Program-made: the position numbers and the translations under genes
Shown here: one piece after another, positions 1,135-42,756 of the stretch
Numbering within the stretch: the first letter of the stretch is position 1
Layout: every line of letters starts with the position of its first letter
Origin: a virus
Virus record (IMG/VR): IMGVR_UViG_3300017698_000003
Location: 1-42,756 of that record
Length of the DNA stretch: 42,756 nt
Direction: 5' to 3' (one strand)
Notes under the pieces: generated by a model
Told to the model about the DNA's origin: nothing
The model's input: only the letters and a program-made list of their open reading frames with translations
The model's database searches: none

Positions 1135-1568
1135 TATTCTTCGACCCCCGGAAACTTGAACACGCCAGCAATGCGCGACGACCATGCGCCTATAGTGGTT
1201 TTAATGACGGCGCGCTTTGATACCGCATGTAGCATATTTTCGGCGTCGCAGGCAATTCCGCAATGCTTGGCCGAAGCTGAAAACTTGACCCGGAACACAA
1301 GCAAGTCGCCAGCCTTCCAACCGTCGTAATCGACCGGCACGAAGTAATCGTGCGCGGCCTTTAGTAGTAGTTCGTCGCGGTCAACTTCGCCCCATGCGGG
1401 CGAATACCGGGGGCGGTAGTCAACGTCGAACCCCAATAGTTCCGCACGCACGCCGCGAATAAACCCGATACAATCCGCCCCGACGCCCTTAAGGGCGGCT
1501 TGGTGGTGGTAGGGCGTGCCTAGCCAACCTTCGGCGGCTTGCACGATATGGTCGCGGCTAAAATACAA
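1134..1568 (-). CDS. NlpC/P60-family cell-wall peptidase (RcGTA g14-like)
   Basis: WLGTPYHHQAALKGVGADCIGFIRGV (catalytic Cys context), 144 aa, located between the hub and g15-like genes. Confidence 0.8.
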   Translation of the reverse strand: MYFSRDHIVQAAEGWLGTPYHHQAALKGVGADCIGFIRGVRAELLGFDVDYRPRYSPAWGEVDRDELLLKAAHDYFVPVDYDGWKAGDLLVFRVKFSASAKHCGIACDAENMLHAVSKRAVIKTTIGAWSSRIAGVFKFPGVEE

Positions 1569-2442
1569 GTGCGCCCCCGTCGTTGTCTTCGTCGCCTTGC
1601 TTGGCGTACTTGGTTACAATGTCTTCGCCCGGCATATGCGGGAACCCTTGGAAGTTAACCAAGTTGTTAAATTTGGTCTTGCACACGTCGGCGGTTTGCT
1701 TGCAACCGGCGGTAACGTTGAACGTGTCGCCTACCTGAATATCGCCTACGGCTGGCGTCCACATATCGAACCCGACCGTAGACCCGTCGTTAGTGTGGGT
1801 ACGCACGTCTATCGTTTGCCCGGCGTTGTTGCCTGTTAGCCAAACAAGCACGCCCCGCGAAAAGTAATCGTCGGCCTGCGCAAGACCGCTTGCCTTGAAC
1901 GCCGACGGCGAAGTTACCGACGTGACGGTGCCCGCGAACGTGACCGAAGCCGCGTTGAACCCGCAACGGCTATCGCCGAAAATAGCGTCACAAGTACGTT
2001 GATATTTACGCCCTACCTTTTGGTTAAGTCGGTGCGTAAGGCTGCGAAGTTCGGCGGTAAATTCGATACCGTTTTGCGTGACTTCGCCAAGGTTGCCGAC
2101 CATTACCGTAAGGCGTTCGGACACGTCCGCCCAATTAACCCAATATAGTTCTATGTCCGCGTCGTCGTACACGCCCGCTATAAGGTCGGTTTCGTCGATA
2201 TGGGCGCTATTGAACGCGCCGACAACTTCCAAGTTATCGACGGACAAGCCTAGCGCCTGTTGTACCTGCGACGCCGTAAACCCGGCTTCGGCTTCGAATG
2301 TCGTACCGTCAAAGGTCAAGTCTTCGTCGTGGTCGGTAAACCCCTGCACTGTTGCGTCTTTGCGCGTGATACGCCAGCAATAGCACATTGTCGTAGCGCC
2401 CGTGTCTAGGTGGTCTTGTAGGGCTGTGGGTATCGTTTTCAT
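1558..2442 (-). CDS. Baseplate hub protein, DUF2163 / phage BR0599 family (RcGTA g13-like)
   Basis: MCYCWRITRKDATVQGFTDHDEDLTFDGTTFEA and CDAIFGDSRCGFN motifs; synteny. Confidence 0.8.
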   Translation of the reverse strand: MKTIPTALQDHLDTGATTMCYCWRITRKDATVQGFTDHDEDLTFDGTTFEAEAGFTASQVQQALGLSVDNLEVVGAFNSAHIDETDLIAGVYDDADIELYWVNWADVSERLTVMVGNLGEVTQNGIEFTAELRSLTHRLNQKVGRKYQRTCDAIFGDSRCGFNAASVTFAGTVTSVTSPSAFKASGLAQADDYFSRGVLVWLTGNNAGQTIDVRTHTNDGSTVGFDMWTPAVGDIQVGDTFNVTAGCKQTADVCKTKFNNLVNFQGFPHMPGEDIVTKYAKQGDEDNDGGALVF

Positions 2443-2446
2443 GCGG

Positions 2447-3076
2447 CTACACCCTGATTTCTATAACGTTGATTGCGGGAATAGAACCGGCTTGGAATGC
2501 GTCGGCTGATAGCTGTATTTCGTCGTCGGCGAACCGCACGGGTACGTCGAATTCATAACCCGCGCTAACGATTACGCCGCCGGTAGGTGCTACCGAAAAC
2601 GTGATAATTCCCGTTGTGCTATCCAGCGTCCAACCGGACGCCTGCGACACGCTATCTAGCGCGACGACGACCGTACCGATTACAGGCTTCTTAATCGGGC
2701 GCACGTATTCTTCGCCGCCGTTGCTGTACCGCTTGACAAGCTGAAACGTCGTAGTAGTGCCGTCGCCCGTAGCTAACACTTGGTCAGTGTCTACGGGTTC
2801 CGCGCGGCCTACGCTTGACTTGTAGTCTAGCCAATCCTTCCACCGAAAACCATACAGGCGACCGCGCCGGGCTTCCCAAAAGTCAAGCACGCTATGCAAA
2901 TGCGACACGCCCCGGATACCTACCGCCGCGTCGTAGCTGCGCCGGGAATGTTGCCAAGCTTGGTTACGTTCTTCGAAGCCCGACTTAAGCGTGACTATCT
3001 GCGTAAGCCGCTTCGGCCCGCCCTTAGACCCGTACGATATTTCGGGCGGAAACTGTGTTTCGTGAAATGCGACCAT
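2447..3076 (-). CDS. Distal tail protein, DUF2460 family (RcGTA g12-like)
   Basis: FHETQFPPEISYGSKGGPKRLTQIVTLKSGFEERNQAWQHSRRSYDA closely resembles the GTA g12 N-terminus. It lies directly after the tape measure gene. Confidence 0.8.
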   Translation of the reverse strand: MVAFHETQFPPEISYGSKGGPKRLTQIVTLKSGFEERNQAWQHSRRSYDAAVGIRGVSHLHSVLDFWEARRGRLYGFRWKDWLDYKSSVGRAEPVDTDQVLATGDGTTTTFQLVKRYSNGGEEYVRPIKKPVIGTVVVALDSVSQASGWTLDSTTGIITFSVAPTGGVIVSAGYEFDVPVRFADDEIQLSADAFQAGSIPAINVIEIRV

Positions 3077-13434: not shown

Positions 13435-14966
13435 TAGTTGCCCCCGTCGTCGGGGTTATCCGCTTCGGGGTCGTCTTCGTTGTCGCCTTCGGGGTCCGCC
13501 GGGTCGTTAGGGTCCGCGTTCGGGTCGTCTGCGTTCGGGTCGTTAGGGTCTTTCGTGAAGTCGTCGGCTTCGATTTCGTCGCGGGCTTCTTCGTCGTCAA
13601 GGGTAGCGACGCCAGACTTACGCAGGGCCGCGCGCATTTCGCTAAACGCAATAGCGCCCTGTTGCCATTCGGCGATAAGCTGTTGCCGTTCCTGCGCCGA
13701 CATGCGCGAAATAGTGTAGTCGGTATTCAGTTCGTACACGATAGCGGCAGCGTCGTCGCCCGTGAACGCTGCGCAGACTTCAAGCGCGAACTTGATTGCC
13801 GCCGATACGTTCTTAGCTACGTCGGCAAGCACCGACGTTTCGCTTGCGTTTTCTATACCGGCTTCAAGCGCGGTTCGCTGTACTTGCTTTTGTTCGACAA
13901 GCTTTGCGCCTAGCGCAATCATTTGCCGTTCTTTGTGTTCCATAGCTTCGAACGGCGTACTATTGGCTTGCATCTGCAACAGTTCGGCGCTACCACCTTC
14001 GGGCAACATGACGCCACCACGGGAACCAAGCCGTACTTGGCCGTCCATGACGTTTTTAACCCATTCTTCGGTAAGGCCGGAAAATACCGGCGTCGGCTGG
14101 CCTGCCATATACGCGCCTTCTTCGTAGTCGGCGCTATTGCGGTAGTGCGCGACGTTCAAAGACGCTAGGTCAAGCATAGGCGGGTGGTCTATTTCTGCGT
14201 CGTTGTTTTCCGACCCTATGAACGTGAACGGGATATAGTCGAAGGCTTCGCCCTTGGCGTTCGTCGGTGTAAGCGGGCCGCTGTATAGCGCCCCGTCGCG
14301 GTAGATTTCGACCGTGTACACGCCGTCGCGTAGGCGCAATACGCGGTATTGTTCTTTCTGCACGACCGCAAAGCCGTCGTCTTCGTCGTCGTAGGTTTCG
14401 CGCAACACGACCAACGTAAGGTACGTTTTAGCCTTGCGCCGGGCCGTGCGCCAATTGATAATACTTAGCGCGTCGTAAACCGTAATAGTAGGCTGCACGT
14501 CGCCGCTATCTACGTCGGCACGCGTTACCCCTTCTTCGGTCGTCGGGTAGTCCGCAAGCACGCCCGCGCGCCCCATGGAAAGGGTATAGCGAACGCCGCG
14601 CTTTGCTAGCTGCGTAAGCGTCAAGCCCGACCCGTCGGCGTCTTCGGCGAACACGTCTAAGCTTGTGGGCACTTCGGCTACAGGGTCGCGCGCAAACACT
14701 TCGCCGACAAGGCCGGAAAGTGTGCGCTGCGTAACGTTGTAGAACACGGCCCGCGCTTTATACGCGTCGTATCGTGCGACGTTTTCCGGGCTTTGGTCGT
14801 CGGCGTTGGGCATGGGTAGGTACTTGGTGCTACCCTTCTTAACGACGCGTTCGCCTGCGACGCAATCCGCGATTTGCTTGTAGTCGGCTTCGAAGTCGCG
14901 TAGTTCCTTGCGCTTCGTAGCTACGCTAGAAGTTGCCGCCGATATTAGGTTAGGTTTCGTCGCCAT
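13434..14966 (-). CDS. Portal protein
   Basis: 510 aa directly after terL. The N-terminus resembles DUF4055-type portals. Acidic DPN/DDP low-complexity C-terminus. Confidence 0.75.
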   Translation of the reverse strand: MATKPNLISAATSSVATKRKELRDFEADYKQIADCVAGERVVKKGSTKYLPMPNADDQSPENVARYDAYKARAVFYNVTQRTLSGLVGEVFARDPVAEVPTSLDVFAEDADGSGLTLTQLAKRGVRYTLSMGRAGVLADYPTTEEGVTRADVDSGDVQPTITVYDALSIINWRTARRKAKTYLTLVVLRETYDDEDDGFAVVQKEQYRVLRLRDGVYTVEIYRDGALYSGPLTPTNAKGEAFDYIPFTFIGSENNDAEIDHPPMLDLASLNVAHYRNSADYEEGAYMAGQPTPVFSGLTEEWVKNVMDGQVRLGSRGGVMLPEGGSAELLQMQANSTPFEAMEHKERQMIALGAKLVEQKQVQRTALEAGIENASETSVLADVAKNVSAAIKFALEVCAAFTGDDAAAIVYELNTDYTISRMSAQERQQLIAEWQQGAIAFSEMRAALRKSGVATLDDEEARDEIEADDFTKDPNDPNADDPNADPNDPADPEGDNEDDPEADNPDDGGN

Positions 14967-14975
14967 GTCTTTGCC

Positions 14976-16583
14976 CTATGTTGCGTGCCGAACTTTAATC
15001 TTCTTCGCGGCCCTGTTGTTGCTAGTCAAGACCCGATAACGCACCATGTCGTAGGTATGGTCTTCGGCGTCTGTGTCTACGTCGTCGGGGTCGTCTTCGT
15101 CACGCGGTAGCGCCGGTATTAGCGTAATCGACGCGGCGCAGTTCGACATAAAGTAAATGCCCGGCCCTTCGCCCTTTATAGACGCTTCTAACCTATCGCG
15201 CAATAGCTGAAACCCGTTCTTGCGTGAACCCTTAGACTTGTCGCTACGCGTCCAACGTATGCCCTTATCGGCCATTTTCTTTTCTATCGTGTCTACGTCG
15301 CTTTCGCGCACGTCGCGTATTTGGTTATCAGCCGGGCCGGGTGCCGGTTGCTGCGTAACCCAACCGTGTTCTAGCAACGCTATTTCCCGGTCGCGTACGC
15401 CTATAGCAACGTCGGGCGCAGACATTTTAAGCCCCTTGTTCGTGCCTATGCCCTGCGTGCCGTACCATTCGTTAAACATGATAAGCGTACCGCGCGGCGG
15501 GCAGAACGTAGACCCGTCGGGCAAGGTAACTTCTTCGCCGTTGGCTTCGCACCACCAACCGACCGCGAACGGGTGCGACGACCCCCAATCGAACGAACGG
15601 TTAACGTGCCAGCCTTCGGGCACCGGGAAGCGTTCAAGTATATGTACGTCGCGTTTCCAAAGGTCGTCGAAGGCACCGCCCGCGTTAACGTCCCATGAAC
15701 CTAGAAGCCATGCGGCGCGCAAGTTGGGGTCGCTAATGCGTTCAAGTTCGGCGACGTATTCAGGCGGCAAATAAATGTTTTCGCGGTAGCTACCGAAAAT
15801 AGCTACCTGCGTCTTAACTACGATAACGTCGGTTTGCGTTTGCGGGTTAAACACCGGCACTTCGGTTCGCACGACTTCGCCGTTTTTGGCTGGCGTGATA
15901 AAGCGCATTTTAACCCAATTGTGCCCCGGCCCGTTCGGGTTCGTAGTTGCGAACACTTCAAGCGGAATAGGTGGCAAGGGTTTCTTGTCTAGGGTATCGT
16001 AGACTACTTCGTACGTACCGTCGTCGCGCTTAATCGTTTCAAGCACGGGCGTATCGCGTTCGGGGCTAAACGACGAACGGTTAGTAGACATTAACTTGTC
16101 GTACAATTCCGACGTAGGGTACTTCGTTAATTCGTTCCAGCCGATAAACGGGTATTCGTGCCCGTGGAAGTTGTCGTAGTCGCTAGGCTTCTTAGCGTGC
16201 CTAAACAACAGTTCTTCGCCAGTAGGCCAAACCCATTTATATTCACTAGCCCCACTAAGGAACTTAGCGCCGTCGCCAAACTGTAGAAAGAAGCGTTTAG
16301 ACTGCGCAACCAAATCGGCAAGGTTCTTAAATTCCCGGTCGAATATAACGCCGCGCCAATACGTGCCGTAGCCTTTGCCCACACGCGACCGAAACCGCAT
16401 AAGCTGCGTAATCGTTTTGCCGGGGCCGCGCGCGCCGTGGTAAAGCGTGTGGTGGCAACGCGTATCTAGGGCTAGTTCCTGCGACGTACCGGGAATAGGT
16501 TCCCATACGGTCGATAGTCCCATTTCCTTAAGCTTTGCCCGCGTTAAGGCTTGCTCAATTAATTGCGGGCTGTGCTGCGTCAT
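14976..16583 (-). CDS. terL: Terminase large subunit
   Basis: Walker A in HGARGPGKT, 535 aa, followed by the portal gene. C-terminal nuclease-like acidic region. Confidence 0.85.
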   Translation of the reverse strand: MTQHSPQLIEQALTRAKLKEMGLSTVWEPIPGTSQELALDTRCHHTLYHGARGPGKTITQLMRFRSRVGKGYGTYWRGVIFDREFKNLADLVAQSKRFFLQFGDGAKFLSGASEYKWVWPTGEELLFRHAKKPSDYDNFHGHEYPFIGWNELTKYPTSELYDKLMSTNRSSFSPERDTPVLETIKRDDGTYEVVYDTLDKKPLPPIPLEVFATTNPNGPGHNWVKMRFITPAKNGEVVRTEVPVFNPQTQTDVIVVKTQVAIFGSYRENIYLPPEYVAELERISDPNLRAAWLLGSWDVNAGGAFDDLWKRDVHILERFPVPEGWHVNRSFDWGSSHPFAVGWWCEANGEEVTLPDGSTFCPPRGTLIMFNEWYGTQGIGTNKGLKMSAPDVAIGVRDREIALLEHGWVTQQPAPGPADNQIRDVRESDVDTIEKKMADKGIRWTRSDKSKGSRKNGFQLLRDRLEASIKGEGPGIYFMSNCAASITLIPALPRDEDDPDDVDTDAEDHTYDMVRYRVLTSNNRAAKKIKVRHAT

Positions 16584-22831: not shown

Positions 22832-23021
22832 GTGTGGGCACCCCCTTAAGCTTGAAGCGCGTACAGTGGTGCGCCTGTTCTACAACCAATGCGGCGTTAC
22901 CGCGCTTGTGTTGACTGCACACGCCCGACCCGTACCTACGCAGCGTATGCGCGAAGTATGCGCAGTTAACGCACACGGGTTCGTCGGGCGGGATTGGTGG
23001 TTGTTCTTCGCTGTAGGTCAT
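22803..23021 (-). CDS. Small Cys-rich protein
   Basis: 72 aa with CVNC...C...C spacing, suggesting a zinc ribbon. Confidence 0.4.
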   Translation of the reverse strand: MTYSEEQPPIPPDEPVCVNCAYFAHTLRRYGSGVCSQHKRGNAALVVEQAHHCTRFKLKGVPTHDSNGDGHK

Positions 23022-23356
23022 TCGTCGGGTTCCTTGTCAACTATCCCTAGCAGGCGGTACGCGCCGCGCTGCAATATCCATAGGGCGTTAGGGCCGTCGG
23101 CTACACTTGACGCGTAGAATTCGTGCCCTTCTTTCGTGTGTCCAACGATTACGACGGTTTCAAGTTCGCCTAGGGCTTGCCTAAGCAAATCGTCGGGGTC
23201 GCTGGCGTGACGTGTGACAATAGGGGCGTGTACGACGTTGGCTAGTTCGACGTAGCCTACGCCCTTGCATACGGGGCACGACGAATTCGTGCCCCAACTG
23301 CGAACGCTTCCCGTGCCTTTGCACTTGGCGCATTCGCGCCTAACTTGCTTCGCCAT
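23018..23356 (-). CDS. Protein with DnaJ-type CxxCxGxG zinc-finger repeats
   Basis: CAKCKGTGS and CPVCKGVGY. Start chosen at MAKQV (GAAGGGG SD); the longer ORF to 23428 overlaps the upstream gene. Confidence 0.5.
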   Translation of the reverse strand: MAKQVRRECAKCKGTGSVRSWGTNSSCPVCKGVGYVELANVVHAPIVTRHASDPDDLLRQALGELETVVIVGHTKEGHEFYASSVADGPNALWILQRGAYRLLGIVDKEPDE

Positions 23357-23549
23357 TAGTTGCCCCTTCGGCTTTGTACGCCGACGCATAGCGGGCTTGC
23401 CGGGCTGCGTCAAATTCGCGCGCGACAATCCGTTGCAGGGCTTCGGCCAATGCGTTACGCACTGCGTACCCGAAGCGTTCCCGCTTAAGTACGTTGGTCA
23501 AAATGCGTTCCGCGTCTTCGGTTGCGTCGTATGTGTGTTTGGTAGCCAT
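23340..23549 (-). CDS. Hypothetical protein
   Basis: 69 aa with a GAAAGG SD. First gene after the promoter at 23578-23606. Confidence 0.45.
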   Translation of the reverse strand: MATKHTYDATEDAERILTNVLKRERFGYAVRNALAEALQRIVAREFDAARQARYASAYKAEGATNGEAS

Positions 23550-23577
23550 TGTTCTAACCTTTCCTAGCTATGCGACT

Positions 23578-23606
23578 ACCCTACCACGGGTCGCCACTAA
23601 TTGCAA
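23578..23606 (-). promoter_or_regulatory. Promoter TTGCAA-N17-TAGGGT
   Basis: Minus strand -35 at 23606-23601 and -10 at 23583-23578, in the 83-nt gap upstream of 23549. Confidence 0.55.
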
Positions 23607-23632
23607 GCTAGCACACGAAGGTTAATACTTCG

Positions 23633-24550
23633 TTATGCGTCGTCGTGTTCTTCGGCAAACTTCGTAGCGTCGCGCAAGATACCCTTGTGCTTGGCTAGCA
23701 GTTCTTCGCGTTCTGCCCACACGTCGGGGTCGCGTACAAGGTCGATTTCGTCTTGTATCAGGTCGCGCAATACGCGGGGTTCCAGCGCGTCAAGTTCCCA
23801 TGAATACGCCCCATGTTCGGCGATATAGTCTTGCGCCCGGCTATCGGTCAACTTGGCCGGGTTCGGCGGCGGGTCGTACGCGCGCACTTGGTCAATGTTC
23901 AACGCTATGCGCTTGACTTCCAACGTTTGCCCTTCGCAGCCGTAATCGTTGTCTGCGCCGCTAAACATGCGCAAGCGGTCTTCGTTGTCGCGGGTCATAT
24001 CCAGCCCGCTAGGGTCGTGGTCGCCTAGGTGAATAACGACGACGCTTTGCCCGCCTTCCATGTACGTACGCAGCCGCTTGCCCGCTTCGTACAGTTCGCT
24101 TTGTGACACGTAGCCCCGGCACGCGAAGTAGTCTACGTCGTTGTCGCGGCACACGCGTTCGATAACGCCTACAAGGGCGTCTTTTTCTATCCATACTTCT
24201 AGGCGCACGTCTTGCCCGTCCCACATATCAATAGAGTATGCGCGGGAATTGTACCGGATAAGCGCAGCCGGGCTAGGCCACGATTGGACGCCGCGCAAGA
24301 ACCGCGTACGGTCTTCGATAGCGTCCCAATCAATCAACCCGGCAAGGCGACCGTTCGACACGGTGCGGCCTAGGCTATCGTACGCCTTTTGGTTGTTCGG
24401 GATAAGGCCGCGCGACACGAATTGGTAATAGAGTTGTCGCAGGGTCAGCTTAAGCCCGTCGGCTTGGTATTCGTCGATAATGTCGTTTGCCTGTGCGATA
24501 GTCGCCAACGACGACTTTCTAAAGGGCACGTCCTTAAAGTGTTCACGCAT
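23633..24550 (-). CDS. Type IIB topoisomerase A-subunit (Top6A/Spo11)-like protein: 5Y-CAP plus Toprim ('Mini-A'-like)
   Basis: LTLRQLYYQFV (R-x-L-Y-Y, as at the catalytic Tyr of Spo11/Top6A). EVWIEKDALVGVI (Toprim Glu). HLGDHDPSGLDM (DxDPxG). 305 aa, with no B subunit nearby. Confidence 0.6.
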   Translation of the reverse strand: MREHFKDVPFRKSSLATIAQANDIIDEYQADGLKLTLRQLYYQFVSRGLIPNNQKAYDSLGRTVSNGRLAGLIDWDAIEDRTRFLRGVQSWPSPAALIRYNSRAYSIDMWDGQDVRLEVWIEKDALVGVIERVCRDNDVDYFACRGYVSQSELYEAGKRLRTYMEGGQSVVVIHLGDHDPSGLDMTRDNEDRLRMFSGADNDYGCEGQTLEVKRIALNIDQVRAYDPPPNPAKLTDSRAQDYIAEHGAYSWELDALEPRVLRDLIQDEIDLVRDPDVWAEREELLAKHKGILRDATKFAEEHDDA

Positions 24551-24582
24551 GGCGCGGGTTCCTTTCGTTGTTAGGTGCGGGC

Positions 24583-24611
24583 ACCCTACGACGAATGCCC
24601 GCGCGTGTCAA
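24583..24611 (-). promoter_or_regulatory. Promoter TTGACA-N17-TAGGGT
   Basis: Minus strand -35 at 24611-24606 and -10 at 24588-24583, 33 nt before the ATG at 24550. Confidence 0.65.
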
Positions 24612-24625
24612 GGGGGCTAGCCCGA

Positions 24626-24838
24626 TTAAAGGCCGTCCCATAGCTTAGACATTTTGAACCACTGCGCCGCCTGATAGGTGTACGCGTTCCGTTCGGCCTG
24701 TAGGGCAAGGCCGAATACTACGGCCCTATGGTCGGCGGCTAGTGCGCTGTAGTCGCAACCGGCGATAGACTGCGACACTTGGTCTAGCAAGTCTTCGTCG
24801 GGCATGGGGTCTATATCCGAATGGGCATTAGCTGGCAT
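24626..24838 (-). CDS. Hypothetical protein
   Basis: 70 aa ORF tightly packed after 24843..25514. Confidence 0.4.
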   Translation of the reverse strand: MPANAHSDIDPMPDEDLLDQVSQSIAGCDYSALAADHRAVVFGLALQAERNAYTYQAAQWFKMSKLWDGL

Positions 24839-24842
24839 GGTC

Positions 24843-25514
24843 TTAGTATCCTTCGTACGGCGGGGCTTCGTTGGCGCGAACTAGGGTGCCCCATTTATCC
24901 GACGGGTCGTCGAAAAGCCCTAGCTGCGCATTGTACTTTACGCGTTCGGTGCGCTTGCGCGCAAACCATATCGTAGCTTGTAGTTGGTTCGGTATCAAGC
25001 CTTCGCGTCGCGCTAGCCGTTTGGCTGCGTCGCTTATGCGTTGGTATTCGCCCTTCGTGCGCACTATGGCTTCTTTCATGGTCATAGCGCGGCCTTCGTA
25101 TGCGGCTTTCATATGCCCGTCAATCGTGACGTGCGCCGTATCCGTAGGGTCTAGTATGTTGTGATAGAACGCGCGAATTTTCGGCCCCTTGGCCGTCGAT
25201 AGAAAGCACCTTTCGCCCGTGACGTATAAATACGCCCGGTCGCGGCAATGCTTGTAGGTGCTAACGGTTATGCGGTCGCATGGCACGCCATGGCGTACGC
25301 CGTGCAGTACGGACGCCAGCGACCGCAAGTTGCCGTAATAGTCATTGTTTGGCGATAGGGCGCAGAACGCGGCTAGGGTTCGGTCTAGCGGGGCGTCGTA
25401 CACGTCGGCAAATTCGCGCATTACGGCGTTATACCGTTCGTACGCTAGCTTGCCTTCGCGTAAGTCGTCTTCGTCGGCTAGGCCGTACATATGTCGCAGG
25501 TTGCGCCCCGACAC
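24843..25514 (-). CDS. Hypothetical conserved phage protein
   Basis: 223 aa. GTG start at 25514 or ATG at 25490. No family recognised with confidence. Confidence 0.45.
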   Translation of the reverse strand: MSGRNLRHMYGLADEDDLREGKLAYERYNAVMREFADVYDAPLDRTLAAFCALSPNNDYYGNLRSLASVLHGVRHGVPCDRITVSTYKHCRDRAYLYVTGERCFLSTAKGPKIRAFYHNILDPTDTAHVTIDGHMKAAYEGRAMTMKEAIVRTKGEYQRISDAAKRLARREGLIPNQLQATIWFARKRTERVKYNAQLGLFDDPSDKWGTLVRANEAPPYEGY

Positions 25515-25517
25515 GGC

Positions 25518-25754
25518 TTAATCGACCTTCGGCGCAATCGGCCCGCCTAGGGCGTCCAATGCGTGCGCGATACGACGGCCCGTAATCGCCCTGTGTTCGT
25601 CACGGGCCGAACCTGCGCTAGCGGCGGCTAGGGTCAGTTCGCACCGGGCTAGGTAGATTGCTTCGTGCAGCGCGTCGATATAGTTGCGCACGGCTTCCGT
25701 AGCGTCGTTAAGGTCGGTCGTGCTTGGTTCCGGCACGTCGTCAATCTTTGCCAT
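25518..25754 (-). CDS. Hypothetical protein
   Basis: Start at MAKIDDVPEP with an AGGAG SD; 78 aa, helical. Confidence 0.45.
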   Translation of the reverse strand: MAKIDDVPEPSTTDLNDATEAVRNYIDALHEAIYLARCELTLAAASAGSARDEHRAITGRRIAHALDALGGPIAPKVD

Positions 25755-25765
25755 GGTCTTTACTC

Positions 25766-25972
25766 CTACCAATTTTCAATAAGGCGCTGTTCGTACCCCG
25801 GCGGCATACCGGGGCACCCTACGCCATGACAACGGCAATCCATGCAACGCACATTGCCGGGCTTCGTTGGGCTTGCGTTCGCCAGTACCTTACGTTCTAC
25901 GTCTGCGTAGTTCGCTTCGGCTAGCTTTCGTATATGCGGCGGCAAGCATTCGCCGACTTGCTTAAAGGCCAT
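25766..25972 (-). CDS. Small Cys-rich protein
   Basis: 68 aa with VRCMDCRCHGVGC. Confidence 0.4.
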   Translation of the reverse strand: MAFKQVGECLPPHIRKLAEANYADVERKVLANASPTKPGNVRCMDCRCHGVGCPGMPPGYEQRLIENW

Positions 25973-26939: not shown

Positions 26940-29384
26940 TTAGGTGCCTATGAACCTGTGCGCGTCCGACACGGCGTAAGCTTTGCCGCGTACATTATAC
27001 TTTTGCAGGTCAGCCCGACCGACTTCTATTAGTGCGCCTTCGTCAAGCAATGACTGCACAGTACGGCGAATAGCGTTGGTTGCCCCTACCCGGTCGTGCC
27101 GGAATGCGGCGGCGGCTACAAGCCTGCGCTGTATAAAGGTGTAGGGCACGATATGGTCGGCGTGCATGGCACGTTTAGCCCCGTATTTAACGACGGCTTC
27201 GAACGGCTGCGTTAGGTATTGGTTCACGACGCGGATAATGTCGGAAACTTGCTTGCTTTCTTCGCTGTTCTTGCCGACTTCGCCCATTTCGAACTTGCGA
27301 GTAATCGACCTAATGTCGCGTTCGATAAGCGCGTACGCCCATTCGGCTACGTCCTTGGTTATGACGACCGACACGCGGTCGGTGTTGCCGTGGTCGGCGC
27401 AGCCTACGGCGATTAGCCCGGCAAGCTTAAGCGTCTTAATGTGGGCACGGTTCCATAGGTGCCGTATTGCTTCGCGTTGGTCTGGCACGTTGATTTGACT
27501 ATCTGCGTACCTATCGACTTCACGTAGGAACGTGTCGGCTTCGGGCGTGTATTCGACCGCTACGGCCATGTTGTGCGAATTCAAGCGTAGGCTATTGTCG
27601 CACAGGTCGCAGAACCGTTTGACTAAATCCATGGAAGGCACCGCGTAGGCGTGTGCTTCGTTGAATTGCGGACGCGCGCCGCCGTACTCAATTGTCAGAA
27701 AGCGCGGCAACAGGCCGTCGCTAATAAGGCTTTCGTCTAGGTTGCTGTAGTAGGTTTCGGGCGTGCTTTCGCCTAGCAACGTGAACGCGGGCGACAATAC
27801 GTCGTCGGTGTTCTTTTCCTTGTCGCTGTAGATTGTGGGGCGCAGAACGTTGCCGCTACCCGACTTGTTATACAGGTCTAGCAGTACCTTCTTAAGCATG
27901 ATTTCAGACGACGACGCGCGCGGGTGCGCTAGCCGTTGCATGGTCAAGCCGAATTCGCCTACGACCGAACAGAAACTACGTTGCTTGCCTATGTACTTAA
28001 GCAACGCCTGCCCGCTGGATATTTCGGCGGGGCCGATAAATTCCCGAACGGCTGGCATGGTGTTTAGCCCGGTATCGTCTGCCAAGCCGCCGCGCATAAC
28101 GTACGACATGAACTTTTCGATACCGCTTTGCATGGCTTCTTTACCTGTGCCCGTCGGTGCCAGCATTAGAACGTAGTTGTTAAGGCCGGTAGCGGACACG
28201 TTGAACGAACGCCCGCACACGCCAGACATAAGCCCGATTGCCGCCGCTATGGCGATTTCGGGCACAGGGCGCGGGGCGCTACGGTAGATAAAGTCGGCAA
28301 GTTCACCAACCAAGCCGGGCGGGGGCGTAATCGACGCCACCACAGGGGCCGGGGCGGGCTGCGCAGGTGCCGCCGGTATTTCGGCTTGCCCGTCTATCGG
28401 TTTGGGGGCCGGGGGCGTCATGGCGCGGGCTATCTGCGCCGACAAGTCGATTTGCGGGGGCGTGCCCACAGGCGCGGCGCGCTTGGCCTGTTCGGCGGCT
28501 ACGACGCGTTCGGCTTCGTTAAACACCCCTTCGGCGTCGATTGGCGGTAGCATATGGTCGAACGCGCGGTTAATCGTGTAGTTCAAATACCCGTTGCGCT
28601 GCGCCTTTTCGCGCTGGCCTAGCGGGCTTTGCCTGAATAGGCGCATTAGCTGCGTTCGGTGCTGCGAATAGAACGCTAAGAAGTTCATGTACGCTTGGTC
28701 GGCTTCCGACTGCGACGGGTAATCGTTGTGCCAATCGCCCGAATGCAAGCGCATAAACTTTTCGCCGTTGACGGCGTTAGACGCCTTTTCGATAACTTCG
28801 GCGTCGGTAAGCTTTTCGACTATATCGCCGCTTACGTTGTGTTGTTCAATGTGCCCGCCTAGTTCGTGCCACAGGGTCGAAACAAGCGTTTGCCGTTCGG
28901 CTATGGGCGCGTCGTTGAATACGTCGCCGGTCACGGTAAAGAAGCGGCCCGACGAATACAGTTCTATCTTGCCCCGGCGGCGTCCGCCGTGTACGTGCCC
29001 CCGTACGATTATGTGCAAGCCTTTGCCCGACGGCGACCGTTCGGCGTAGCTGTTGAACATTTGGTAAATCTTAAGCTGCACGCGCAAGGCGTTTTCGTCG
29101 CCCGCCGTGTCGTCAAGGTCTACGCCCGCGAAGGGGTCGTGTTCCGTAAAGACGAAGCCCGCGCCCGACCAATTGCCAGAACCTAGCGCGGTCATTACCT
29201 GTTCGAACGTGCCCCATGTCGCCGCGTCGGATACCGACGCTAGCCGCCCGGTCTTCGGGTCGTAGGGCACTTTTGTAGGTTTGGTTCCGTCGCGGTCTTC
29301 GTAGCGCCATACTACCCATTGGTGATAATCGCGCATGTCCGCCGGAACGTTCATAAGACGTTCATACATTAAGCGGCTTCCCAT
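26940..29384 (-). CDS. Primase-polymerase (prim-pol) fused to a PriCT and P-loop helicase-like C-terminal domain
   Basis: WVVWRYE..KVPYDP, GVDLDD, YAERSPSGKGLHIIVRG and IELYSSGRFFTVTGD (prim-pol). SQSEADQAYMNFLAFY (PriCT-like). MLAPTGTGKE (Walker A). The start may be 29369 (GGGAAG SD). Confidence 0.8.
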   Translation of the reverse strand: MGSRLMYERLMNVPADMRDYHQWVVWRYEDRDGTKPTKVPYDPKTGRLASVSDAATWGTFEQVMTALGSGNWSGAGFVFTEHDPFAGVDLDDTAGDENALRVQLKIYQMFNSYAERSPSGKGLHIIVRGHVHGGRRRGKIELYSSGRFFTVTGDVFNDAPIAERQTLVSTLWHELGGHIEQHNVSGDIVEKLTDAEVIEKASNAVNGEKFMRLHSGDWHNDYPSQSEADQAYMNFLAFYSQHRTQLMRLFRQSPLGQREKAQRNGYLNYTINRAFDHMLPPIDAEGVFNEAERVVAAEQAKRAAPVGTPPQIDLSAQIARAMTPPAPKPIDGQAEIPAAPAQPAPAPVVASITPPPGLVGELADFIYRSAPRPVPEIAIAAAIGLMSGVCGRSFNVSATGLNNYVLMLAPTGTGKEAMQSGIEKFMSYVMRGGLADDTGLNTMPAVREFIGPAEISSGQALLKYIGKQRSFCSVVGEFGLTMQRLAHPRASSSEIMLKKVLLDLYNKSGSGNVLRPTIYSDKEKNTDDVLSPAFTLLGESTPETYYSNLDESLISDGLLPRFLTIEYGGARPQFNEAHAYAVPSMDLVKRFCDLCDNSLRLNSHNMAVAVEYTPEADTFLREVDRYADSQINVPDQREAIRHLWNRAHIKTLKLAGLIAVGCADHGNTDRVSVVITKDVAEWAYALIERDIRSITRKFEMGEVGKNSEESKQVSDIIRVVNQYLTQPFEAVVKYGAKRAMHADHIVPYTFIQRRLVAAAAFRHDRVGATNAIRRTVQSLLDEGALIEVGRADLQKYNVRGKAYAVSDAHRFIGT

Positions 29385-29605: not shown

Positions 29606-29634
29606 ACCCTAGCCGAAAATATTTTATCCCGCAA
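29606..29634 (-). promoter_or_regulatory. Leftward promoter TTGCGG-N17-TAGGGT
   Basis: Minus strand -35 at 29634-29629 and -10 at 29611-29606. One AAAATATTT repeat lies in its spacer. Confidence 0.55.
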
Positions 29635-38596: not shown

Positions 38597-39934
38597 TTAA
38601 GCGACCTGTACGCCCCAAAAGTAGTTTTCGTCGGCGGCTACGTAAGCGTCTTGCCCGACAAAGAACGCCCGCAAATCGACCGTATCGCCCGCCGTAAGCT
38701 TAAGGCACGCGGTAACACTTATCGACGTGGTGTCGTCGATAGCTGCGCCGCCTTCGCCTGTGCGCCGTGACGCGTCGGCGGTTGGGCTTGCCGCATTGAC
38801 GCTAAACCCTATTTGAATGGCCGTAGGTACGGTTCCGTTCGTCTTGTGCAGGAACCCGCCCCCGAACAGGTAGTAGCCGTCGTGCGGGGCCGTAAACGCG
38901 CCAGACGAAACCGACGCTTGGTCGTTGTGGCGTGTGTTGTTTATATCAATCTTGAACCATGCCCCGGCGGCGTTGTATTGGTCGTAGTTCAAGTACCCGC
39001 TAAACTTCGGGTGTTGCGGTAGGGATACCGCCGCCGTGTCTTTGTCCGCGATAAGGGCAATAGTGTACACCGAACCGTCGGGCGAAGTTTTAAGCGTCCA
39101 ATCGTCGTCGCCAAGCAACCCGGCAAGCGCGCGGCCCGAAAAGTTCGTTTGCCATGTAACCGACGCGTCGTTAGCCGCCGCGTTTTTACTGAATACGAAG
39201 CCGAAGCTACCCGACGAACTAAACAACGCGCTTGACCCCTGCACGCTAAGAACGTTGTTTGCGTCGGCTGTTGCACCGCCGAAACCTACGTGCCCGTTGT
39301 CCGCGTCTACGTGCATGGCTTGGTAGAACGTCGAACCGTCGGGGCTAACACTAATAACGTAGTCGTCGATACCGTTAAGCCCCGCAATAACGCGCGTGCT
39401 AAACCCGGTCTTGTACGTCAATGTCGCCACGTCGCCCGACGCGTTCTTATTAAGCACTACGTCTATATCGTCGGTTTCGCGGTTGAACAGTACGCCCGGC
39501 GTGTTGATTGATAGCCGGTTAGTAGTATCCGCCGTCGCGCCGTTGATACCAAGCAACAGTACGTCGCCTTGCGCCAACGACGTAGCGTTGACCGGCGACG
39601 TATAGGTGCCCCATGCCGCGCCGTCGTACAGGTACATAAGCCCTTCGTCGCGTACATAAACTAGCCAACCTTCGCGCGGGGTATGGAAGTACCAAGCCGT
39701 TTCTTGCCACGACGCTAGCTTACCCGCTTGACCTGCCCACAGGCCGGTAGGGCTAGCCCCGACTATGTACGTATCGCCGTTCGTTGGCGAACCCGGCGGG
39801 GTCGCAAGGTCTTTGTCTTCGGCGTATGCCTGCACAACGGCGTCTAAGGCGCGGAAACCGTCGTTAACGCTAACGTGTTTTTGCGACTGTGCGGCTTCAA
39901 GGTACGTAATACCTAGGTTCGGTGTATCGGTCAT
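38597..39934 (-). CDS. Tail fibre: DUF2793 N-terminal domain plus C1q/TNF-like C-terminal head
   Basis: N-terminus LGITYLEAAQSQKHVSVNDGFRALDAVV...PPGSPTNGDTYIVG..PTGLWAGQAGKLASW fits the DUF2793 pattern. C-terminus FTAPHDGYYLFGGGF...LKLTAGDTVDL is C1q-like. ATGA overlap with the g15-like stop. Confidence 0.65.
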   Translation of the reverse strand: MTDTPNLGITYLEAAQSQKHVSVNDGFRALDAVVQAYAEDKDLATPPGSPTNGDTYIVGASPTGLWAGQAGKLASWQETAWYFHTPREGWLVYVRDEGLMYLYDGAAWGTYTSPVNATSLAQGDVLLLGINGATADTTNRLSINTPGVLFNRETDDIDVVLNKNASGDVATLTYKTGFSTRVIAGLNGIDDYVISVSPDGSTFYQAMHVDADNGHVGFGGATADANNVLSVQGSSALFSSSGSFGFVFSKNAAANDASVTWQTNFSGRALAGLLGDDDWTLKTSPDGSVYTIALIADKDTAAVSLPQHPKFSGYLNYDQYNAAGAWFKIDINNTRHNDQASVSSGAFTAPHDGYYLFGGGFLHKTNGTVPTAIQIGFSVNAASPTADASRRTGEGGAAIDDTTSISVTACLKLTAGDTVDLRAFFVGQDAYVAADENYFWGVQVA

Positions 39935-42756
39935 GGTGTTGCACTCCTAATAGCTATGGTTTCTTCGCGCAACGAACCGTAGTTACCGTACGCGGCCCCG
40001 AACTGCGCAACGTCTACCGTTAGCGAAGTCTGCGCCGTACCGAAGTCGGTAACTTGGTCGGCTGCGCTATAGGTGTACGTCGGTGTCGTCAATTCTACTT
40101 CGCGTACAATAGTCACGCCGTCGTAAATGCGCAAGCGGTACTGTTCGCTTTCTTCGTTCAATGGCGGATTAGAAACCGACCAACCGTCGCCGTTAAAGCG
40201 CGTGCGGCGCTTCCATGCTATAGCAAGGTCGCCGCTTCCGTTAATCGACATTTGCACGCCTGTAGGGGCGTAGGGGCGCAGCCCGACGCGCTTACCTTGG
40301 TGCGTGCCCGTCCTGTACGTGTCGTCGCTTTGCGGGTAGCGCGACGGCCCCCAACTATAGGTAAATTCGTCGGCGCTTTGCGCGTCCGTCATTACTACCG
40401 GCGATATAAACGATTGTTCAAGCAACACGACGGGGGCACCTGTGGGCACCGGGTCGCCCATTGCGTTTTCAGTACCAAGTTGCCCGCGTAGTAGGTCCGT
40501 TACGTCGTACGCGTTGGTTCCTGTTAGCGTAGTCGTTGCGAACTGTATAACTTCCCATTCGTCTTTAGCTTCGTTGTAGACGCCTAGGGCAATAGCCCCG
40601 TTCAACGCTACCAATTCGTCAACGCTGGCAAGCGCGCCGTAATCGAATGCGACGGAAAGTACGTTGCCCCTATCCCAAACGCCATGGGGCGCGGAATATA
40701 GCGGGGCGGTAAGTTCGCCGATTGAATTCTTATACGGGTGCCGGTTGTTGAATTCGTACGTACTGTCGGAAAGTTGGCGGTATAGCGATATTTCGCCCGG
40801 CCAAGGGTCCGCGTAGGTTACGAACATAGGTGCCCATGGTAGCGGTTCTTCGCCCGTGAATAGCGGCAAGTCAAGGAACACCAATTGCGCCGACCCGTAG
40901 ATATTGCCGATACCCGGCAAGCGGTCGTCTTCGGGCGCGTTGGGTAGGCTGAATATGCCGGGGTCGAACGCGGCGAATTCTGCGTTACGCATTTCGCCAA
41001 GCGATAGCAGGGTAAGCCGCCCGGTAAGGCTATGGCTTCCGACGGGAAACGTAATTGCGTCGCCGGGGTCTAGCTTAGACAACGACGGGGGTAGTTTCAT
41101 CTTGCCCGTTTGGCGTTCAATCCATTTCTGTTGTACAAGGCCGTCGGCAAGACTACGGCAATAGTCCGTCGTAAGAAGTAGCGGCAAGTCTAGTTCTTCG
41201 ATTGTCTGCGAATATCCGCGCGAAGTCTTGCCGTCAACCGACCCCGAATTGTAGTCGTTGAATTCGTCGATAAACGTTACCTTGATAGACGACGGCAAGT
41301 CGGTTTCTTGCCCGCGCTTAAGCGTAACGCCTACGGCGTCGTTGTCGTCTACTACAAAGTCGTCGTCTGATATTGACGACGTGCGCGTGTTACTGCGCAG
41401 TAAGAACTTAATCTTACCTTCGCTTTCGAACGCGTCGAATAGATAGCCTTCCATAAGCGTTTCAATGCTTGCCCGTATCCGTTCGGGCTTTTCGACATTG
41501 TAGCCCCGCACAAGGGCACCGGGGCCGTACAGGCCGGTAACGTCGTATTGGTCGGGGGTCAGCCCCGCCAGACTGCACAGATAGGCCACAAGGCGGGCTA
41601 GGGGCACGCTTTCAATGCGCCCCGTCCACCAATGCCCCTTAAACCACAAATCGCCGTCTGACCACACGGTAGACCGCGCCGGGTAGTCGGGAAATGGCCG
41701 GGCGTCCCATGTCCAAATGAACATATTCTTAGTTTCAAGCATTGATAGACCCGAACCATTATCGGGCGAATTCGACCCCCAATAGTCAAGCACGGCTTCG
41801 ACGGCTACACGCTGTATAAAGTCGTCGCGCAATCCCGACGAAAAGTACGGAAAGGAACTTTCCGAAGACTTAGGGTCGTAGAATACGTTCGGTTGGTTGG
41901 TGCCTTTGTCTATCGCAGGCACGCCGAATTCAGTAAACCAAATAGGCTTAGACCCCGGAACCCAACCCGTAGGGCTAGCGTCTTCGACGCCGCCGGGGCG
42001 GTTGTAGTGCGAATTCAACCACCACGAACGAAAATCTTTGTTGCGGAAAACCCACGGCTTGCCGTACGCGCCGTCGGTTATCGGCGTACGCGTTTGCGAT
42101 ATGCGGTCGGCTTCACTTGCGTAGTACCAATCGAAGTATTCGCCGCCTTCGATATTCGACTTAAGGTAGTCGGGTTCGTACGTAGATACGGGGCCGTTAA
42201 CCCCGTCGTAGTCAAGGTGCTGCGACCCGTCGCGCCAATCCGACAACGGTAGGTAGTTGTCGCAGCCGCAAGCGTCGATATTTGCCGAAGACCAAAGCGG
42301 GTCTAAGTGGAACCAATGGCCGTCGCTTCGGCTATCGTACCATTCCGACCAATCGGCGGCGTAGGTAACGTCTGTGCCGCCCCCTACGATACCCTTAACC
42401 GTCGCAGCTAGCGACACAAGGCGGGTTACGCCGGGGTACGACCCTAGCGCGTCGCGCGTCTTCGTAATCTGCACAAGTTCGGACCCGATAACGAAGCCGT
42501 CAACGCCCCCGGCTGCGTCGCATAGGTTAGCGTAGTGCGTAACCATGGCGTCGTATTCGTCGAACCAAGCGTTAACCTGTGTTGCAGCCGCCGCCGTCTT
42601 ATCGACCGACCCGGCATAGCCGTAAGCGGGGCTAGCCGTAATACGCCCGCGCCATGGGAAGGCCGGTTGCCCGGCGGTCGCCGCGTTGTCGCTGTACGGG
42701 TTCGGTAGGGTGTTGCCGCTAACTACGTCCATTAAAATAAACGGGTAGAATATTAC
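39931..42756 (-). CDS. Baseplate/host-specificity protein, RcGTA g15-like, C-terminal part (same gene as 1..1134; total about 1286 aa)
   Basis: The frame is open to the window end. The Met at 42732 is internal: the junction reads ...GKRVIFYPFILMDVVSGNTLPNPY..., as in the GTA TIM-barrel-like domain. It sits after the g14-like peptidase, in GTA order. Confidence 0.85.
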   Translation of the reverse strand, partial: VIFYPFILMDVVSGNTLPNPYSDNAATAGQPAFPWRGRITASPAYGYAGSVDKTAAAATQVNAWFDEYDAMVTHYANLCDAAGGVDGFVIGSELVQITKTRDALGSYPGVTRLVSLAATVKGIVGGGTDVTYAADWSEWYDSRSDGHWFHLDPLWSSANIDACGCDNYLPLSDWRDGSQHLDYDGVNGPVSTYEPDYLKSNIEGGEYFDWYYASEADRISQTRTPITDGAYGKPWVFRNKDFRSWWLNSHYNRPGGVEDASPTGWVPGSKPIWFTEFGVPAIDKGTNQPNVFYDPKSSESSFPYFSSGLRDDFIQRVAVEAVLDYWGSNSPDNGSGLSMLETKNMFIWTWDARPFPDYPARSTVWSDGDLWFKGHWWTGRIESVPLARLVAYLCSLAGLTPDQYDVTGLYGPGALVRGYNVEKPERIRASIETLMEGYLFDAFESEGKIKFLLRSNTRTSSISDDDFVVDDNDAVGVTLKRGQETDLPSSIKVTFIDEFNDYNSGSVDGKTSRGYSQTIEELDLPLLLTTDYCRSLADGLVQQKWIERQTGKMKLPPSLSKLDPGDAITFPVGSHSLTGRLTLLSLGEMRNAEFAAFDPGIFSLPNAPEDDRLPGIGNIYGSAQLVFLDLPLFTGEEPLPWAPMFVTYADPWPGEISLYRQLSDSTYEFNNRHPYKNSIGELTAPLYSAPHGVWDRGNVLSVAFDYGALASVDELVALNGAIALGVYNEAKDEWEVIQFATTTLTGTNAYDVTDLLRGQLGTENAMGDPVPTGAPVVLLEQSFISPVVMTDAQSADEFTYSWGPSRYPQSDDTYRTGTHQGKRVGLRPYAPTGVQMSINGSGDLAIAWKRRTRFNGDGWSVSNPPLNEESEQYRLRIYDGVTIVREVELTTPTYTYSAADQVTDFGTAQTSLTVDVAQFGAAYGNYGSLREETIAIRSATP
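42658..42756. repeat. Right copy of exact 99-bp terminal direct repeat
   Basis: Identical to 1..99. It lies inside a coding frame, so it behaves like an assembly overlap. Confidence 0.95.

Follow-up and report, generated by a model that had tools for sequence, protein, structure and literature searches.

Can the catalytic half of a type IIB topoisomerase serve a virus that encodes no ATPase half? The question is raised by a gene of the IMG/VR virus record IMGVR_UViG_3300017698_000003, the 42,756 nucleotides of which were analysed as a whole and are called the window here. On the minus strand, positions 23633..24550 form an open reading frame (ORF) of 305 amino acids with an ATG start and a TAA stop, as seen in the ORF list and the sequence. 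The original prediction, made from the letters of the DNA, had taken its product for a stand-alone Spo11/Top6A-like protein of the Mini-A type lacking a B subunit, a view supported by the match to PHROG 6247, counterparts in 84 phage records, the signatures of the family and the absence of a GHKL gene from the genome. Judged by its sequence the window protein is a clear member of the Mini-A family. By analogy with its better known relatives it is probably a homodimeric, Mg-dependent enzyme that breaks and rejoins DNA through a tyrosine, operates without an ATPase and is auxiliary to phage replication or recombination.

Membership of the Mini-A family

Mini-A was defined by Takahashi et al. as a group of virus-encoded homologs of the type IIB topoisomerase A subunit, about 300 amino acids in length and without a B subunit (PMC7671362). 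Its hallmarks are Rxx[Y/F]Y, a Toprim glutamate, DxDxxG and a C-terminal T2BI box, xWELDAL, the last of which sets Mini-A apart from Topo VI and Topo VIII; PSI-BLAST, phylogeny and modelling in the same paper support the relation to the A subunit. In the window protein the first motif is R38-Q-L-Y41-Y42, within LTLRQLYYQFV (residues 35-45). E122, within EVWIEKDALVGVI (residues 118-130), and D177-H-D179-P-S-G182, within HLGDHDPSGLDM (residues 174-185), represent the Toprim glutamate and DxDxxG, and the T2BI box is S250-W-E-L-D-A-L256 (SWELDAL). The ORF and the three motifs quoted in the original prediction are present in the right places in the protein; its tyrosine numbering, Tyr44/Tyr45, has to be corrected to Tyr41/Tyr42. 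The protein is also short and of the A-only type, its alignment to Top6A beginning at a helix of the winged-helix domain, with no counterpart to the N-terminal beta strands of Top6A, and it is encoded by a complete siphovirus genome in which no Bergerat-fold gene was found.

Similarity to recognised members is significant. A full-length match to PHROG 6247 (DNA topoisomerase) has an E-value of 4.8e-108, and tblastn revealed counterparts at 22-53% identity in 84 phage records, many of them annotated as DNA topoisomerase. Among these are Pseudomonas PaMx25/NP1-like, Xylella Sano/Salvo and Salmonella Chi-like phages, as well as Roseobacter phage RDJL Phi 1, Listeria phage LWP01, Pseudanabaena phage Pam3 and the archaeal virus HCIV-1. 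The E-values were 1e-64 to 1e-86 against phages of Pseudomonas, Salmonella and Listeria, genera named in PMC7671362. A word-indexed search returned at least 8,000 homolog candidates, and an exhaustive search 7,436 clusters at 50% identity with E<=1e-3, or 1,147 with E<=1e-30; at least 558 IMG/VR contigs encode relatives. One metagenomic contig encodes a sequence of 98% identity, and metagenomic relatives of 41-44 kb keep Mini-A at 62-79% identity. The family has been known since 2019/2020, has a place in PHROGs and is annotated as a matter of routine in GenBank records of phages, and the window gene is an ordinary new member of it.

Conservation was counted in 170 homologs with identities down to 22%, the least similar of which include those of HCIV-1 and of phages of Cellulophaga and Bacteroides. 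E122, K123, D177 and G182 are kept in 170/170 sequences, R38 and D179 in 169/170, and Y42 in 169/169. In the xWELDAL box, W is retained in 161, E252 in 168 and D in 166 of 169 sequences. These motifs are far beyond chance and under very strong constraint; the original prediction was to be given up had their residues proved variable among homologs, and they are invariant or nearly so in the 170 sequences. Three homologs of 653-712 amino acids (P0161, P0191 and P0251) carry inteins with Hint and LAGLIDADG domains, inserted at two sites 0-3 residues ahead of the Toprim glutamate (RVE/C...HN/CWVEKD and EVW/C...HN/CEKD). Inteins at this glutamate fit a conserved and functionally important catalytic site.

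A selfish role of the homing-endonuclease kind was considered for Mini-A and rejected, the family being strongly conserved across phyla and itself an intein target. One further homolog, P0260 (305 amino acids), has in its first ~70 residues an ABC-type Walker A motif (GPSGCGKS; Pfam ABC_tran, E-value 8e-12). It was set aside as an ATPase fusion, since it most likely results from a chimeric contig or a miscalled start.

Relation to Top6A and Spo11

The Top6A alignment used for comparison was seeded with the M. mazei sequence from PDB, and all of its members contain PF04406, PF20768 and PF21180. The sequence-only hhalign alignment of Mini-A to this set is collinear over 265 columns, and R38, Y42, E122, D177 and D179 fall on R62, Y66, E162, D214 and D216 of the Top6A protein P0272, all five of which are invariant in the Top6A alignment. 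R62, Y66, D214 and D216 correspond to M. mazei R102, Y106, D254 and D256, and for E162 the +40 offset leads one to expect M. mazei E202 as the equivalent. The AlphaFold2 model of the window protein has a pLDDT of 88.5 and a pTM of 0.81. The structure of Top6A was predicted separately, and the DSSP strings of the two models were compared along the hhalign alignment; they agree at 65% of positions against 39 +/- 4% (maximum 49%) in shifted controls. Register is kept by the helices of the winged-helix domain and by all strands and helices of the Toprim domain. Helices 12-29, 37-46 and 54-69 of Mini-A pair with the Top6A winged-helix helices 32-53, 61-68 and 79-93, and the Toprim domain of the Mini-A model runs beta1-E, alpha, beta2, alpha, beta3-DxD, alpha, beta4, alpha. 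In this way the catalytic R, Y, E and DxD are collinear in matching secondary-structure elements.

When 147 diverse Mini-A proteins were scanned one by one against Pfam at E<=0.1, 56 families appeared. Only TP6A_N (7 members), DUF2399 (6) and DUF7281 (3) were found in more than two proteins; the unrelated DUF4177 was found in two and the remaining families were singletons. The TP6A_N matches are sub-threshold, the best having an E-value of 0.0024. DUF2399 is a Toprim family of the Top6A clan, and two Top6A proteins likewise carry a DUF7281 annotation. The Toprim region of the PaMx25 homolog shows PF09664 (DUF2399; E-value 1.6e-4) and PF21180 (TOP6A-Spo11_Toprim; E-value 0.009).

A number of points weigh against the reading proposed at the outset. 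The window protein matched 0 families of Pfam, NCBIfam or PADLOC even at E<=10, a significant profile match to PF04406 (TP6A_N) or PF21180 among those missing, and neither phmmer with the single sequence nor a 50-sequence Mini-A profile found anything relevant among PDB sequences. Foldseek of the AlphaFold2 model against PDB gave no match at E<=0.001, with Top6A, Spo11 and JetD absent from the top 50; the best matches were de novo 2x2 Rossmann designs (E-value 0.015-0.033, prob 0.95-0.98), and there was also a weak match to the Toprim-containing T7 primase fragment (E-value 0.056, prob 0.75). The hhalign comparison with Top6A gave a P of 0.02-0.055 and a probability of 1-4%, with or without AlphaFold2 secondary structure, a score below HH-suite significance, although a reversed decoy gave a P of 0.72 against 0.02-0.04 for the true alignment. 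Top6A alone is inactive without Top6B, and self-sufficient breakage and rejoining by Mini-A is an assumption. A search of the literature up to mid-2026 found no functional study of any Mini-A, and reviews of 2024-2026 still describe its function as unknown. The ground for a role in replication, most likely as that role appears, is gene position only.

Foldseek of the same model against BFVD produced generic Rossmann-like or weak Toprim matches only, and no full-length Mini-A homolog; this database apparently holds no full-length Mini-A entries, though 84 GenBank phages encode one. In a control, the Top6A model recovered Top6A (E-value 1e-20 to 1e-48) and yeast Spo11 (E-value 1e-12) and did not recover JetD or MksG, whose relation to Top6A has been established crystallographically. 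Since Foldseek misses that relation, negative fold searches at such a distance are uninformative. The absence of a significant Pfam, PDB-profile, Foldseek or hhalign match is what would be expected if the protein had no kinship with Top6A at all, being an unrelated winged-helix plus Rossmann-like protein with motifs alike by chance. We regard this as extremely unlikely: five catalytic residues lie in order and register, the secondary structures match, the recurrent sub-threshold Pfam matches are specifically to TP6A_N and Top6A-type Toprim families, PSI-BLAST, phylogeny and modelling in PMC7671362 point the same way, and the Foldseek control fails on an established relation as well. The original prediction had named the lack of a significant 5Y-CAP/Toprim match as its own refutation, and the profile and structure searches came close to supplying it; register, secondary structure and recurrent Pfam matches tell on the other side. 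The claim of a Top6A fold stands on the literature and on convergent weak lines, not on any single significant score. We conclude that the relationship is real but distant, Mini-A being farther from Top6A than Spo11 is.

Search for a partner subunit

No GHKL/HATPase_c or other Bergerat-fold domain was found in 40 ORFs (a set that took in nearly all those of >=140 amino acids) scanned with Pfam and/or PHROG, and a six-frame search of the genome for the Bergerat N-box, G1 and G2 motifs returned nothing. The earlier statement that the genome lacks a GHKL B subunit holds on both counts. All window ORFs were further compared by tblastn with 88 Mini-A loci, made up of 80 IMG/VR loci and cultured phages. 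Mini-A was matched in 88/88. Apart from the near-identical contig L004, the other matches were scattered (chiefly primase-helicase in 10 loci, helicase in 6, SSB in 5), and the immediate neighbors of Mini-A matched in 0 loci outside L004; DUF7178, a 223-amino-acid neighbor, was found only in that contig. Neither tblastn nor de novo clustering of neighbors in the 88 loci disclosed a co-travelling "Mini-B" gene.

These results bear on the idea that Mini-A provides the catalytic half of a bona fide type II topoisomerase whose ATPase/clamp partner has either diverged beyond recognition or comes from the host. A B subunit is required by every characterised type IIB enzyme, and the family-defining paper left the possibility open (PMC7671362). 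It is nonetheless a very improbable explanation, since neither a GHKL nor a Bergerat motif turned up in the genome, the 88 loci of diverse phages contain no gene that co-occurs with Mini-A, Mini-A is without the N-terminal Top6A segment that binds Top6B (PMC7671362 and the alignment), and the hosts come from so many phyla that a single conserved host partner is unlikely.

De novo clustering showed the arrangements around Mini-A to be lineage-specific. In a large lineage of gut temperate phages Mini-A comes immediately behind a Cro/XRE-type regulator gene and is followed by SNF2 helicase, VRR-NUC, HD protein, DNA polymerase, P-loop ATPase and SSB-like genes (names read from representative sequences). 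In PaMx25 it stands between a ligase gene and a Sak4-SSB-RecB-helicase module, and in phages PDS1 and BKO1-3 it adjoins polymerase-exonuclease and primase genes. The recurrent setting, in unrelated phages, is a replication/recombination module without a dedicated partner. In the co-occurrence survey that had been suggested, no window gene accompanies Mini-A across the loci, and the setting recurs.

Several features of these loci were recorded in passing. Parabacteroides phage PDS1 (L003 1-1145) and Bacteroides phage BKO1-3 (L007 1-456) have an SMC/RecN-like ATPase gene 2.5-3 kb upstream of Mini-A. In PDS1, Mini-A is split into two coding sequences, annotated as DNA topoisomerase and DNA primase. 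The Mini-A phages phi38:2 (Cellulophaga), PaMx25 (Queuovirinae), Pam3 and SPN19 possess nearby DNA-hypermodification or nucleotide-metabolism genes, among them FolE, QueF, aGPT-Pplase1/2, and ThyX with nucleoside deoxyribosyltransferase. This association may merely reflect large replication modules. A link to DNA hypermodification (Queuovirinae, QueF/FolE, aGPT-Pplase) was rejected for the window locus, which is without such genes.

Genome context and accessory status

Nucleotides 1-99 of the window are repeated exactly at its other end (42658-42756), a sign of a circularly closed or terminally redundant assembly, and the genome, of 42,657 bp, is complete. Structural genes of a siphovirus make up the left arm, those for terminase, DUF4055 portal, Gp13-like capsid protein, tail tube, tape measure and endolysin among them, together with an RcGTA-like distal tail. 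An operon running rightward holds the genes for Sak4, SSB, a Cas4-type exonuclease, an SF2 helicase, a clamp-like processivity factor and DNA polymerase A. The leftward operon begins with a PrimPol-helicase gene (26940-29384), followed by ~15 small genes that include DUF7178, Mini-A, a DnaJ-type zinc-finger protein and RNase H. Where the original prediction saw "host-takeover-type" surroundings, the neighborhood is a replication/accessory region whose genes are not demonstrably of that type.

The nearest cultured relative is Paracoccus phage vB_PmaS-R3 (L089), which is syntenic across the whole genome, with amino acid identities of 83% for the capsid protein, 83% for the polymerase, 82% for the helicase, 88% for Sak4 and 63% for the primase. 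The RcGTA-like tail together with the 83% capsid identity to a Paracoccus phage indicates an alphaproteobacterial host. R3 has no Mini-A gene. Between the homologs of ORFs 25518-25772 and 23340-23549, where the window (23340-25772) has DUF7178, a 70-amino-acid ORF and Mini-A, R3 (14059-15282) has a MazG pyrophosphatase gene instead. The slot, which lies downstream of the primase gene, is hypervariable and accessory. Since R3 has the same replisome without Mini-A, the gene is accessory in this lineage and not part of the core replisome.

The recurrent setting also invites a different role, that of a Spo11-like or rolling-circle-like initiator, in which a programmed, persistent protein-linked nick or break would start sigma or recombination-dependent replication, its ends being processed by the Cas4-type exonuclease, the Sak4 annealase and SSB. 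The conserved Tyr/Mg residue set is shared with Spo11, and the window phage encodes all three of these processing proteins. Mini-A lies directly upstream of the Sak4-SSB-RecB-helicase module in PaMx25 and, in the gut temperate lineage, ahead of the replication genes; in skuldviruses it is the only replication-type gene, and a role as rolling-circle initiator has been proposed in the literature. Such an initiator seems unlikely here. R3 has the same replisome and recombination genes without Mini-A, so that an initiator essential to this lineage is improbable; the analysis identified no repeated origin-like target; and a single-turnover covalent enzyme needs a removal pathway, of which none is evident.

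Further observations concern the window genome. The window RNase H is likewise absent from R3. Two genes downstream of Mini-A, a 136-amino-acid protein (23018-23428, minus strand) contains two CxxCxGxG DnaJ-type zinc-finger motifs (Pfam DnaJ_CXXCXGXG, E-value 5e-6; Anti-TRAP, E-value 5e-5) and is present in R3 at 49% identity. In the structural module, the RcGTA-like distal tail genes (1134-3076, minus strand) specify DUF2460, phiJL001 Gp84_N plus BR0599, and an NlpC/P60 peptidase. The ORF for a 933-amino-acid tail protein (39931-42732, minus strand) starts within the terminal repeat copy.

Promoter-like elements and features of the locus

The gene had been credited with a consensus promoter at 24583-24611. 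The TTGACA -35 hexamer and the 17-nucleotide spacer are there, and the element recurs; the -10 hexamer, TAGGGT, is not a consensus one, and a sigma-70 scan did not call the element, that hexamer matching at only 3/6 positions. The -10 lies between the arms of a 7-bp inverted repeat (GCGGGCA/TGCCCGC). The copy downstream of Mini-A, which probably serves the next gene, has an inverted repeat GCGAC/GTCGC around TAGGGT. Both flanking copies share an upstream GCTAGC and the short inverted repeat around TAGGGT (fold z -2.0 and -2.8), and a third TTGnnA-N17-TAGGGT copy occurs at 29606-29634 on the minus strand. The inverted repeat at TAGGGT could be an operator or an RNA hairpin, and the repeated element may be a phage-specific early/middle promoter type. 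A repeated and possibly regulated promoter type is plausible. The features of the locus are collected in Table 1.

Table 1. Features of the Mini-A locus (positions in the window)
Feature	Position	Strand	Basis or remark
Promoter-like element TTGACA-N17-TAGGGT	24583..24611	-	in 75-bp upstream gap; -35 consensus, -10 matches 3/6
Ribosome-binding site AAAGGAA	24559..24565	-	AGGA core 9 nt upstream of ATG; read from sequence
Mini-A coding sequence	23633..24550	-	ORF list, sequence, PHROG 6247 (E-value 4.8e-108), homolog clusters
N-terminal winged-helix (5Y-CAP-like) domain, residues ~1-110	24221..24550	-	AlphaFold2 helices, alignment to Top6A winged helix, TP6A_N matches
R38-Q-L-Y41-Y42, putative catalytic tyrosine Y42 and its arginine	24425..24439	-	conservation, hhalign mapping
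Toprim domain, residues ~113-235	23846..24214	-	AlphaFold2 secondary structure in register with Top6A Toprim
Glu122, predicted Toprim metal-binding glutamate (WIEKD)	24185..24187	-	conservation, alignment to Top6A E162
D177-H-D179-P-S-G182, predicted Toprim DxDxxG metal-binding block	24005..24022	-	conservation, alignment to D214/D216
W251-E-L-D-A-L256, Mini-A-specific T2BI box	23783..23800	-	signature of PMC7671362, E252 conservation
Second promoter-like copy GCTAGC..CTTGCAA-N17-TAGGGT	23578..23606	-	in 83-bp gap directly downstream of Mini-A

Proposed mode of action

The A subunits of Top6 dimerise through their Toprim domains, as is established knowledge and is seen in the 2026 cryo-EM study of Top6 with DNA (PMC13040014). 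In Top6A/Spo11 each tyrosine attacks one strand beside the Mg2+ site of the partner, which produces 5'-phosphotyrosyl links, and in Top6 a conserved salt bridge between R102, the arginine ahead of the tyrosine, and the C-terminal E342 restrains cleavage, E342Q being a hyper-cleaving mutant (PMC13040014). E342 of Top6A is located within its T2BI box, KKAEQQA, and E252 of the WELDAL box is likely to be the Mini-A counterpart of this "clasp" glutamate. By this analogy Mini-A is predicted to retain the brake as well as the chemistry.

For the window protein, the analysis shows identity, conserved residues, the lack of a partner gene and accessory status; dimerisation, chemistry and biological role are inferred as follows. 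The gene would be transcribed from its own promoter-like element, in the variable region downstream of the primase-helicase gene of this R3-like siphovirus. The winged-helix domain would bear the catalytic Y42 with R38, and the Toprim domain would bind Mg2+ through E122, D177 and D179. E252 would clasp R38 and hold cleavage back until the geometry of the DNA frees it. Two copies would dimerise through their Toprim domains, each tyrosine attacking one strand beside the metal site of its partner to form a 5'-phosphotyrosyl link, and the resulting nick or staggered double-strand break would then be resealed with no ATPase subunit taking part. In this manner the enzyme most likely aids phage replication or recombination; it could, for instance, relax replicating genomes or unlink them.

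A bolder proposal goes further than resealing. Mini-A might be a self-sufficient, ATP-independent DNA gate, a minimal and possibly ancestral module of Top6A/Spo11 that makes programmed protein-linked breaks or nicks to start recombination-dependent or rolling-circle replication. We rate this as having only a small chance of being right; if true, it would be the bacterial-virus counterpart of Spo11-initiated recombination, and an accessory copy such as this one would be a tractable model.

Mini-A is among the commonest phage DNA-metabolism proteins without an assigned activity, and is the only known branch of Top6A/Spo11 with a catalytic tyrosine but without an ATPase partner. Learning what it does would reveal if a cleavage module of the Spo11 type can act alone, and would bear on the origin of type IIB topoisomerases. 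The locus is no new kind of element; it provides a natural pair, a Mini-A-plus phage and the near-syntenic Mini-A-minus R3. That pair, the clasp-glutamate correspondence, the intein insertion site and the absence of a co-travelling gene in 88 loci are the additions made here, and the residues listed lend themselves to mutagenesis (Y42F, E122A, D177A/D179A and the clasp mutant E252Q).

Comparison with known systems

JetD and MksG, the nucleases of the plasmid-defence systems Wadjet and MksBEFG, resemble Mini-A in being ATPase-less Toprim proteins related to Top6A; they are dimers, as Mini-A is predicted to be, and their cleavage of DNA is metal-dependent. On this model Mini-A could be a hydrolytic Toprim nuclease that cuts host, plasmid or competitor-phage DNA in takeover, exclusion or anti-defence, with no covalent tyrosine intermediate. 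The sub-threshold DUF2399 (Toprim) matches among family members, the position of an accessory gene with its own promoter-like element in a variable region, and the SMC/RecN-like ATPase genes a few kb from Mini-A in Bacteroides and Parabacteroides phages are in keeping with such a nuclease. We consider it quite unlikely, however, because JetD and MksG are without the 5Y-CAP catalytic tyrosine and have an SMC-like JetABC/MksBEF motor to work with, whereas Mini-A keeps R38 and Y42 almost without exception, the clasp glutamate that restrains cleavage is conserved, ORF scans found no SMC-like gene in the window, and no PADLOC model, those of JetD and MksG included, matched at E<=10.

Topo VIII, a plasmid-borne type IIB enzyme, is like Mini-A carried by mobile elements and is also without the N-terminal half of the 5Y-CAP domain (PMC7671362). 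It differs in its fused or split GHKL-transducer ATPase half and its RVELNAM box; the 305-amino-acid window protein has neither, its own box being SWELDAL.

With Top6A and Spo11 (PDB 1D3Y, 2Q2E, 9O0G and 8URQ) the window protein shares a winged-helix domain followed by a Toprim domain, with the catalytic R, Y, E and DxD and the clasp E in the same order and elements. It is ~60-100 residues shorter than Top6A, without the N-terminal B-binding segment or the extra beta-sheet between the domains, has the T2BI box WELDAL, and is too diverged from Top6A for detection by Pfam or Foldseek. Unlike Top6A and Spo11 it has no Top6B or TopoVIBL partner, and a Topoisomerase VI holoenzyme, which calls for a co-encoded Top6B, is not specified by this genome, in which no GHKL gene was found. 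From the published Mini-A proteins no difference of substance separates the window copy, which is a new sequence in an R3-like siphovirus.

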